The notes under the pieces were generated by a model. That model was not told the DNA's origin and made no database searches. It was given only the letters and a program-made list of their open reading frames with translations. A DNA stretch of 43,524 nucleotides from a virus (Duplodnaviria; Heunggongvirae; Uroviricota; Caudoviricetes), in IMG/VR virus record IMGVR_UViG_2531839666_000032; one strand, given 5' to 3'. This document shows positions 36,853-39,051 of this stretch, piece by piece. Numbering within the stretch: the first letter of the stretch is position 1; each line of letters opens with the position of its first letter. Position numbers and translations under genes: made by a program.

Positions 36853-37083
36853 TTAAGCTGCGTTCTTTTCGGTGTGTGGAAACAACTTCGGAAGATCCGG
36901 GCGAATCTGGTATGCCTTCACTACTCCACCAGTAGCCGTAACAATGCTGCCGACATGTTCAGGGGATACCTTTGCTTTGTTGTGAAGCCACTTATAGACG
37001 GCCTGCTGTGAAACTTCGCAAGCAGCGCCCAGTTTCTTTTGTGAACCAACGATATTGATCGCTGTTTTGATAGCTGGGTTCAT
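36853..37083 (-). CDS. cro: Cro-like helix-turn-helix repressor
   Basis: 76 aa MNPAIKTAINIVGSQKKLGAACEVSQQAVYKWLHNKAKVSPEHVGSIVTATGGVVKAYQIRPDLP, divergent from cI; GGAGG Shine-Dalgarno. Confidence 0.8.
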   Translation of the reverse strand: MNPAIKTAINIVGSQKKLGAACEVSQQAVYKWLHNKAKVSPEHVGSIVTATGGVVKAYQIRPDLPKLFPHTEKNAA

Positions 37084-37187
37084 AACAACCTCCGTGGTTA
37101 ATTTGAATCAAGATTAAAACTATGGTTGTTTTTAGTCAACAACCATTTTCGTTTGATGAAATAAAACCTTGGTTGTACATTTGGACT
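37084..37187. promoter_or_regulatory. Immunity control region oR with divergent promoters: candidate pR (-35 TTGACT 37134-37139, -10 TAATCT 37111-37116, minus strand) and pRM (-35 TTGATG 37153-37158, -10 TACATT 37176-37181, plus strand), plus operator palindrome ATGGTTGTT-N7-AACAACCAT at 37122-37146
   Basis: Hexamers with 17-nt spacers and ACAAC/GTTGT half-sites read directly; pRM would give a leaderless cI mRNA as in lambda. Confidence 0.45.
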
Positions 37188-37877
37188 ATGAAAACAACAC
37201 TCTCAGAAAGACTTAAAGAAGCCAGATTAGCGCGAGGCCTTACACAAAAGGCGCTTGGGGATTTGGTCGGGGTTAGCCAGGCTGCTATTCAGAAAATCGA
37301 AACAGGGAAAGCTAATCAAACAACTAAAATCGTGGAGATCGCGAACGCTTTGGGTGTGCGCGCAGAATGGTTATCTTCTGGCGTTGGAAATATGTCAGAC
37401 AGTACAGTGCAACCAATACAATCAACTGTCAGCCATTCCAAATACTTCAAGATTGACGTTCTTGATATAGAAGTCAGTGCTGGGCCGGGAGTCATCAACC
37501 GTGAGTTTGTAGAAGTTCTACGCTCGGTTGAGTACTCGTTTGACGATGCTCGTCACATGTTCGATGGTAGGAAGGCGGAAAATATCCGCATCATTAACGT
37601 GCGTGGTGACAGCATGTCAGGAACGATCGAACCAGGTGATCTGCTGTTCGTTGATATCACAGTTAAATCTTTCGACGGTGATGGTATCTATGCGTTTCTG
37701 TACGACGACACAGCCCATGTAAAGCGCCTGCAAATGATGAAGGATAAGCTGCTGGTCATCTCTGATAACAAAAGCTACTCACCGTGGGACCCGATCGAGA
37801 AAGACGAGATGAACCGGGTGTTCATCTTCGGTAAGGTTATTGGGAGCATGCCGCAGACATATAGGAAGCATGGGTAG
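37188..37877 (+). CDS. cI: CI-type prophage repressor (N-terminal HTH, C-terminal LexA-like S24 autopeptidase domain)
   Basis: 229 aa from MKTTLSERLKEARLARGLTQKALGDLVGVSQAAIQKIETGKANQTTKIVEIANALGVRAEWL; C-terminal ...VRGDSMSGTIEPGDLLFVD...HVKRL; the ORF track extends 22 codons upstream across the operator. Confidence 0.85.
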   Translation: MKTTLSERLKEARLARGLTQKALGDLVGVSQAAIQKIETGKANQTTKIVEIANALGVRAEWLSSGVGNMSDSTVQPIQSTVSHSKYFKIDVLDIEVSAGPGVINREFVEVLRSVEYSFDDARHMFDGRKAENIRIINVRGDSMSGTIEPGDLLFVDITVKSFDGDGIYAFLYDDTAHVKRLQMMKDKLLVISDNKSYSPWDPIEKDEMNRVFIFGKVIGSMPQTYRKHG

Positions 37878-37998
37878 TACCAATTAAAAATTATCAACTG
37901 GGCATTGTGCTCATTCAGTAAAGAACTAATTCCTATCTTTGCTCTAGGTAGTAATATTAAGCCACCGCAATAATATCTTTACCTAACGGCGTAAGAAT

Positions 37999-38025
37999 CC
38001 CGGTCACCGTGCCGGGTTTTCTTTT
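37999..38025 (+). terminator. Rho-independent terminator after cI
   Basis: CCCGG-TCACCGTG-CCGGG hairpin followed by TTTTCTTTT. Confidence 0.6.
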
Positions 38026-38119
38026 GCCCTCCCCTCATCACACACACCGTTAAAAAAACCACCATAACCTCGCTTCAGTTATCGCTATGCGATTCAAGTC
38101 ACAAAATAAATCCATCCTA

Positions 38120-38196
38120 AATACAACCAGTTATATCTAAAACAACCAATAAAACAACTTTTGTTGTTGACGATAAAACAACTATAGTTTTAAATA
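38120..38196 (+). promoter_or_regulatory. oL/pL candidate: -35 TTGACG 38167-38172, -10 TTAAAT 38190-38195, overlapped by operator palindrome AACAAC-TTTT-GTTGTT at 38153-38168 and further AACAAC half-sites
   Basis: Read directly; same half-site family as in oR. Confidence 0.4.
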
Positions 38197-38388
38197 AGTT
38201 CATCGCAACAACACAACGATACGGCAACTACCTGATTCACCGTTGCGATGACCGCTTAGATCCGCAGTTTGAATTTCAGCAGGCTTCGGGGAGTGCGAGG
38301 GGTGAAACGGACGCGTGAACGTCGGTGTGACCAGCTGAAATTAACTCAACATTTCATACCTTAGTCGCTTCAACGAGGCGGCTTAGTT

Positions 38389-38679
38389 ATGACAACCGGC
38401 GGCCATCCACCGCCTGAATACGCGCAGAAGTCTCTATATGTTCAGCAGCCCAGCTTACGGGCAGGAGTTTTTATGGTTCATCAACATTATGGAACGCAGA
38501 CCGTTAATCGAGGTGCGGTCATGCCAGGAATGCTGGTCAAACACAAAGATGGTACCTGGACTGCATCAGCTAATTTACGCGGACGGCTTTATCTGCATCG
38601 CGGCATCGAGCGCACTTATACCCGTGATTTGCTCGTGGAAGTTTTTCTCGACGGACGCGGTAACGGCCTGAATCACTAA
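38389..38679 (+). CDS. Hypothetical protein (96 aa), first gene of the pL operon, in the position lambda kil occupies upstream of gam
   Basis: [73 protein letters not shown]; no family recognised; an alternative 77-aa frame overlaps. Confidence 0.4.
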
Positions 38680-38754
38680 TCCCCTTTCCTGTTTTCCTAA
38701 TCAGCCTGGCATTTCGCGGGCGATATTTTCACAGCCATTTTCAGGAGGTCAGCC

Positions 38755-39051
38755 ATGAACGCTTATTACATTCAGGATCGTCTTGAGGCTCAGAGCTGGG
38801 CGCGTCACTACCAGCAGATCGCCCGTGAAGAGAAAGAGGCAGAACTGGCAGACGACATGGAAAAAGGCCTGCCCCAGCACCTGTTTGAATCGCTATGCAT
38901 CGATCATTTGCAACGCCACGGGGCCAGCAAAAAAGCCATTACCCGTGCGTTTGATGACGATGTTGAGTTTCAGGAGCGCATGGCAGAACACATCCAGTAC
39001 ATGGTTGAAACCATTGCTCACCACCAGGTTGATATTGATTCAGAGGTATAA
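38755..39051 (+). CDS. gam: Gam, RecBCD inhibitor
   Basis: 98 aa [98 protein letters not shown]. Confidence 0.95.

Follow-up and report, generated by a model that had tools for sequence, protein, structure and literature searches.

What gene occupies the early-left position immediately ahead of gam in this phage genome, in the slot where lambda carries kil, and which of the open reading frames found there encodes it? The window, by which we mean the whole 43,524-nucleotide stretch of IMG/VR record IMGVR_UViG_2531839666_000032 that was analysed, carries two overlapping plus-strand open reading frames at this point, one of 96 and one of 77 codons. Both were reported in a preliminary description of the DNA and both were found again here (Table 1). 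The reading that we consider quite probable is that the locus encodes a 68-amino-acid cell-division inhibitor of the KilR family, produced as the first gene of the cI-repressed pL transcript. As a finding this is ordinary, and its value lies in filling in the annotation: a KilR-type division inhibitor occupies the lambda kil slot.

Table 1. Coordinates of features in the early-left region of the window, with the basis on which each was assigned.
Feature	Position	Strand	Basis or remark
cro-like gene, divergent	36853-37083	-	
cI-type repressor, HTH plus S24 peptidase	37122-37877		
Intrinsic terminator	37999-38016		
pL promoter/operator region (presumed)	38160-38206	+	From sequence and start of inter-immunity homology
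5' pL leader, conserved only in the window's phage type	38207-38359	+	96-99% identity, 16 phage records
Leader hairpin 1, 9-bp stem (38360-38368 with 38378-38386)	38360-38386	+	Covariation
96-codon ORF	38389-38679	+	Present in window
In-frame 28-codon extension, the short ORF of the leader cassette	38389-38472	+	Not conserved in divergent Kil homologues
Leader hairpin 2, GGCGG-CCAUCCA-CCGCC, within the short ORF	38398-38414	+	
77-codon alternative-frame ORF, not a gene	38438-38671	+	No family; stops in homologues
Leader hairpin 3, GCCC-AGCUUAC-GGGC, abutting the kil Shine-Dalgarno	38448-38462	+	By eye
Shine-Dalgarno AGGAG, 5 nt before ATG 38473	38463-38467	+	From sequence
kil (KilR-family cell-division inhibitor), 68 aa, most likely start	38473-38679	+	Family models, homologue starts, RefSeq CDS
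Lambda mosaic junction and lambda-type kil-gam intergenic region with gam Shine-Dalgarno	38672-38760	+	Alignment
gam, 98 aa	38755-39051	+	Pfam Gam, E 2e-64

Gene position and protein family

Features in this part of the window run in the order cro (minus strand), cI, terminator, pL, kil, gam, bet and exo, and an early-left position near the recombination genes is also seen in Rac, phi80, HK639, HK225, KO-TP1 and S9-5. When aligned with lambda, the window is ~98% identical from ~38672 onward and unalignable upstream. The divergence from lambda noted in the preliminary description is therefore real, but the point at which it was placed, ~38690, lies ~18 nt too far to the right. The sequence at the junction, TCACTAA, comprises the final codon and the stop, which the two kil genes share; most lambda-like records in the phage database match only positions 38673-38760 of the window. 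It is likely that a KilR-type gene took the place of lambda kil in a mosaic exchange whose junction lies at the stop codon. Within the lambda-homologous kil-gam intergenic region, a terminator-like hairpin with a T-rich tail (38704-38721) lies just 5' of the gam Shine-Dalgarno.

The earlier proposal that the gene sits in the kil position and replaces kil is borne out by its place directly ahead of gam and by BLASTP, which found no alignment between lambda Kil and the window protein at E <= 100; the lambda Kil family was also absent among the Pfam hits of the window. Lambda Kil, a 47-aa, ZipA-dependent inhibitor of FtsZ, thus shares with the window protein its slot directly before gam and its presumed purpose but no sequence similarity, making it a functional analogue and not a relative. 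The locus clearly illustrates how genes that are analogous in function but not homologous can be exchanged at one fixed position, here with a stop codon as the junction.

Profile searches, proposed in the preliminary description as a check, place the protein in a family and, together with its database homologues, show the ORF to be no mere chance open frame. The 96-codon frame matched PHROG 294 ("Kil protein for bacterial septation inhibition") at E 1.2e-38, with aa 20-96 spanning profile positions 4-80 of 83, as well as the NCBIfam KilR model NF008465/PRK11354 ("FtsZ inhibitor protein") at 61.9 bits and E 4.4e-17. The latter score falls under the curated cutoff of 92 bits for this model; the window protein represents a sister subfamily and not KilR proper. 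BLASTP against Rac KilR gave 36% identity over 61 aa (E 9e-13), while the identity of the 68-aa protein is 41% to phi80 Kil, 85% to HK225 Kil and 100% to the annotated Kil of PhiR47_2 and Perceval. Precomputed assignments of Pfam PF27398 cover Rac KilR and proteins 96-100% identical to the 68-aa sequence; our local copy of Pfam-A, which is older than PF27398, left the 96-aa ORF unmatched. Residues H5, R13, G19, S32, L59 and G63 are invariant family-wide in an alignment that includes KilR, phi80 Kil and HK639 Kil, and the window protein carries the conserved residues of all branches, namely the N-terminal HYG, R13, V16-x-PG19, AS32A, Y40, L59 and G63.

Judged by its sequence, then, the window protein is a member of the known and already annotated KilR family, with homologues annotated as Kil in HK225, mEp237, phi80, HK639 and Stx2a phages. 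Of these, the 68-aa Kil of HK225, mEp237 and HK639 and the phi80 Kil (PHROG 294) share both family and length with the window protein; all four are annotated as septation inhibitors, and as far as we found their function is likewise only inferred. A published comparison of lambdoid phages lists three "Kil" protein clusters, two of which are weakly similar to one another (PMC9836094). The division-inhibitor guess made for this position agrees with the homology to Rac KilR, phi80 Kil and PHROG 294. The protein can no longer be called unknown, as the very same 68-aa protein carries the annotation Kil in PhiR47_2 and Perceval and has the RefSeq entry WP_000233576.1.

Start codon and reading frame

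Several comparisons place the beginning of kil inside the 96-codon frame. Positions 1-70 of the 73-position NCBIfam KilR model align to residues 29-96 of the ORF, and the database homologues (149-305) are mostly 67-68 aa long and start at the position of ATG 38473, with SD-like motifs equally spaced before the start in the HK225, Klebsiella and IMG/VR homologues. Where longer homologue ORFs have been called, their N-terminal extensions are mutually unrelated or are frameshift artefacts. The RefSeq protein WP_000233576.1 ("phage encoded cell division inhibitor protein") corresponds to exactly the 207-nt CDS at 38473. The functional start of kil is most likely 38473 and not 38389, and codons 1-28 lie, on these comparisons, outside the conserved protein; the 96-aa protein first described was thus right in frame, but its first 28 codons are not conserved. 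The longer ORF appears because the short ORF of the leader cassette described below has no stop here and continues in frame into kil.

We consider it unlikely that translation from ATG 38389 yields a 96-aa product, either as one of two or as the only one, in which Kil carries a 28-residue N-terminal extension. This ATG opens a short ORF that is kept in many phages, and several in-frame length variants of it end in ...EVLY*, a hint that the short ORF may also be translated; in other kil-linked variants of the cassette, however, it stops before kil or goes out of frame, and the only SD-like element available to ATG 38389 is a GAG(G) located 10-11 nt upstream, inside hairpin 1. In the window's phage type no stop separates this ATG from kil, and since KilR is active with an N-terminal mCherry fusion (PMC12482147), an extension need not inactivate the protein. 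Set against this, the family model begins at residue 29 of the 96-aa ORF, all divergent homologues either lack the 28-residue extension or have an unrelated one, and PGAP left it unannotated in every listed match among 2301 E. coli genomes carrying the cassette.

Public annotations of the kil locus conflict with one another and are mostly wrong, with RefSeq carrying the 68-aa CDS. Over-long Kil ORFs of 128 and 139 aa are annotated in PhiR47_2 (L002:3377-3763) and Perceval (L003:3249-3668), respectively, because CAG in those phages replaces an in-frame TAG (38362-38364) of the window. That one of these longer ORFs is the true gene, and that the TAG is a nonsense change leaving the window with a pseudogene or a truncated allele, strikes us as very improbable. 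The frame is indeed open further upstream in relatives with CAG, but the TAG allele is present in 21 of ~49 IMG/VR copies of the window's leader type, which makes it a common variant and not a one-off and implies that phages can do without the upstream extension, which is most likely non-coding. Moreover, the TAG/CAG site is the unpaired mismatch position of hairpin 1, and the stretch upstream is pL leader from ~+1, containing a covarying hairpin and unrelated to the divergent Kil proteins.

The preliminary description had regarded the choice between the 96- and 77-codon frames as not settled; comparison with homologues now settles it. Substitutions in the kil frame number 9, 8 and 39 at codon positions 1, 2 and 3 relative to the homologue of Klebsiella RCIP0098, and 9, 7 and 39 relative to that of HK225, with ratios of synonymous to non-synonymous codon changes of 29:14 and 32:10, respectively. 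By this third-position bias, and by the stop codons that interrupt the 77-codon frame in the HK225, Klebsiella and phi80 homologues, the 96-codon frame is the coding frame and the 77-codon frame is spurious. GenBank record PV340559 (PhiR34_1), which is 100% identical to the window at this locus, annotates the latter as a hypothetical protein (L001:3559-3792). An open frame with an ATG does exist there and was chosen by the depositor's pipeline, but its translation had no PHROGs or NCBIfam match and only a sub-threshold Pfam one (PHD_P300, E 0.075), and the pattern of substitutions is phased with the codons of the other frame, so we rule it out as a gene with near certainty. The analysis thus corrects the public records at this locus, PV340559 for a wrong frame and PhiR47_2 and Perceval for over-long ORFs.

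Predicted activity and the C-terminal tail

In the mechanism we propose, kil would be expressed early from pL on induction or infection, after cI is inactivated. Its product would fold into a small beta-barrel of the SH3-like type that ends in a flexible C-terminal tail of 9 residues and, by analogy with Rac KilR, would block formation of the Z-ring by acting on FtsZ, producing filamenting cells while the phage replicates and recombines. The reading frame, the family, the consensus start, the predicted fold, the gene context and the mosaic junction are results of the analysis; we infer the pL assignment, the FtsZ target, the toxicity and the timing of expression. KilR disrupts Z-rings, and overexpression of FtsZ rescues the cells (PMC12482147); at high dose KilR also mislocalises MreB (PMC12482147). 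KilR works independently of ZipA, unlike lambda Kil (PMC12482147), and whereas toxicity of lambda Kil is suppressed in ftsA* delta-zipA cells, toxicity of the KilR type is not (PMC12482147).

Rac KilR (73 aa) is the closest described counterpart, being similar in size, homologous to the window protein over the whole domain with shared invariant residues, and likewise encoded early-left, ahead of recombination genes. An AlphaFold2 model of the 68-aa protein, built from a 31-sequence alignment, consists of six strands in a small barrel (mean pLDDT 85.9), with lower confidence at residues 1-7 and 60-68. Its best viral structural match, with TM 0.81, was a family member of 73 aa encoded by a Pantoea phage, and no solved structure was related by sequence to the 68-aa protein. 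KilR modelled in AF3 has a beta-sheet core with short unstructured ends (PMC12482147), a description with which the fold predicted here agrees.

The two proteins differ at their C-termini. The 12-residue tail of KilR is essential and acts in a length-dependent manner (PMC12482147). Removal of its last three residues preserves toxicity and filamentation but abolishes cell rounding (PMC12482147), and three alanines in their place restore rounding (PMC12482147). In the family alignment the window tail, DGRGNGLNH, has 9 residues in place of the 12 found in KilR proper and ends exactly where KilR-delta3C ends, so that it lacks the last three residues that KilR needs for rounding. This suggests, by analogy with the KilR truncation and with modest confidence, that the 68-aa Kil subfamily may act on division alone and leave MreB-dependent elongation unaffected. 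Were this true, tail length would separate division-only Kil proteins from those with dual effects on division and elongation, a prediction that can be tested.

A protein with the KilR fold could also have another main target, such as MreB and the elongasome or a different host protein, or could serve as a trigger or decoy for host defence. We rate this as rather improbable. KilR itself has a second, MreB-linked activity (PMC12482147), and the tail, which is critical for function, differs in the window protein, but the family-wide invariant residues are retained, and many phages keep the gene beside their recombination genes. Small beta-barrels are versatile as binding folds, and a host defence protein is reported to recognise the complex of FtsZ with another phage protein that binds it (PMC13423816); nonetheless, nothing at this locus points to any specific alternative target.

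The pL region and the leader cassette

Promoter elements consistent with pL are found at 38167-38172 (TTGACG) and 38190-38195 (TTAAAT), separated by a 17-nt spacer and accompanied by AAAACAAC repeats. A consensus promoter scan did not call pL, and the promoter was therefore assigned by eye and from the start of homology among phages of different immunity, which begins at ~38207; in alignment with Perceval, a phage of different immunity, conservation runs from TCGCAACAAC onward. The AAAACAAC motifs, found at 38100-38200 and including the palindrome AACAACTTTTGTTGTT, overlap the presumed -35 and -10 elements of pL and are probably the operators of the window's immunity type. Perceval has unrelated CAATAGC repeats at the operator position. 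The rex slot between cI and pL (37878-38160) is empty in the window; in PhiR47_2 it holds an annotated GevT toxin and GevA antitoxin (L002:1648-3076), and in Perceval two other genes (L003:1433-2983).

No N gene was found between pL and kil, and PhiR34_1 has none annotated in its entire genome. Also absent from the window is the intrinsic terminator found ahead of the cassette in phi80, HK225 and HK639, and the early-left transcript may reach kil, gam, bet and exo without antitermination. Because of the missing N gene, an antiterminator RNA of the HK022/HK639 put type was considered for the pL leader. The leader gave no meaningful alignment with the putL-like RNA of HK639, and its folding energy over 38205-38350 is ordinary (z 0.35); within these limited tests no put-like features were seen. 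An Rfam scan of 37800-38800 at E <= 1 returned no match.

Between this leader and kil lies a conserved leader cassette at 38353-38472, with a core at 38387-38412. The cassette recurs in HK225 (L005:2370-2500), at L007:1990-2100 and L010:2480-2610, and in the IMG/VR loci L011-L130. Its core, TTATGACAAYCGGCGGCCATCCACCG, is present in at least 120 IMG/VR contigs by a scan for exact matches, which is biased with respect to sequence variability. An 81-nt query taken from window positions 38345-38425 matched 2301 of 5426 complete E. coli genomes (~42%), and no annotated feature underlies the cassette among the E. coli matches listed. A conserved, covarying leader RNA that is widespread in complete E. 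coli genomes yet carries no annotation is thus a by-product of the analysis. The usual order of elements is an intrinsic terminator, CATACC, hairpin 1, and an AUG opening a short ORF that contains hairpin 2, followed by a variable stretch, a small GC hairpin, a Shine-Dalgarno and a variable gene that begins 83-105 nt past the AUG of the short ORF. The short ORF (MTTGGHPPP...) usually has 16-24 codons and in other phages ends ahead of the gene that follows. The first gene after the cassette varies, with at least 25 different ones found; of 72 distinct contexts, 59 have a member of the kil family within the next 1 kb.

Hairpin 1 contains one internal mismatch, at which the in-frame TAG of the window falls, and a loop UUCAACGAG whose ...GAG is conserved. 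Of the 8 pairs tested, 7 show compensatory changes, with 95% of cells paired. Covariation scored 0.523, compared with 0.154 in shuffles, none of 500 of which reached the observed value, and with at most 0.109 when the partners were slid. The pairs include 19 G.U as against 4 A.C, pointing to a structure formed by RNA of the pL-sense strand. Hairpin 2 is retained at the nucleotide level in CobraSix despite a 1-nt deletion that shifts the frame of the short ORF, implying that the constraint is at least partly on the nucleotides, and Salmonella phage S9-5 likewise keeps the hairpin, with a G.U pair in it. Some copies, that of HK639 among them, have a T-run after hairpin 2 and a terminator annotated there, and the phi80 cassette falls inside the region annotated as tL1; the window has no such T-run. 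The stem of hairpin 3 varies among copies as GCCC/GGGC, GCGC/GCGC or GCC/GGC, as judged by eye.

The cassette upstream of kil in phi80, HK225 and HK639 is the same as that of the window. In those phages it follows the intrinsic terminator and other genes may separate it from kil, whereas in the window kil comes directly after the cassette, with neither the upstream terminator nor an N gene. Leader-peptide attenuators, and the phi80 and HK639 copies annotated as tL1 or "terminator", resemble the window cassette in that a short ORF overlaps a hairpin, with a T-run in some copies; the window copy departs from them in having none after hairpin 2. For hairpin 1 with its ...GAG loop we found no described counterpart and no Rfam family, and no description of the cassette was found in the searchable literature. 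Rfam scans over the cassette in five related phages likewise gave no match, the hits elsewhere being isrB in HK225 and a weak Trp-leader. The isrB match (an Hfq-binding sRNA) is antisense, at L005:3274-3371 on the minus strand, scores 38.2 bits against a gathering threshold of 35, and sits between a Gifsy-1-like ORF and recE.

The cassette is possibly the only new item at this locus. The cassette might couple translation to the control of termination or of downstream initiation, or might be a structured recombination linker. A more specific proposal is that the cassette acts in cis as an RNA gating the kil-containing segment of the pL transcript in many enterobacterial lambdoid phages, for instance through translation-coupled control of termination or of how accessible the next ribosome-binding site is, and, separately, that the 68-aa Kil inhibits division only, having lost KilR's activity toward MreB; this is tentative, and we would sooner doubt than accept it. 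Should the cassette prove regulatory, it would be relevant to how prophages restrain toxic early genes such as kil.

Pairwise alignment revealed no evident similarity between the window leader and the kilS-kilR leader of Rac. For the Rac prophage of E. coli K-12, the RefSeq annotation includes a small RNA, KilS (L004:7406-7503, minus strand), within the leader that precedes kilR. Both kil-family genes, that of Rac and that of the window, nevertheless have long structured or regulatory leaders ahead of them.
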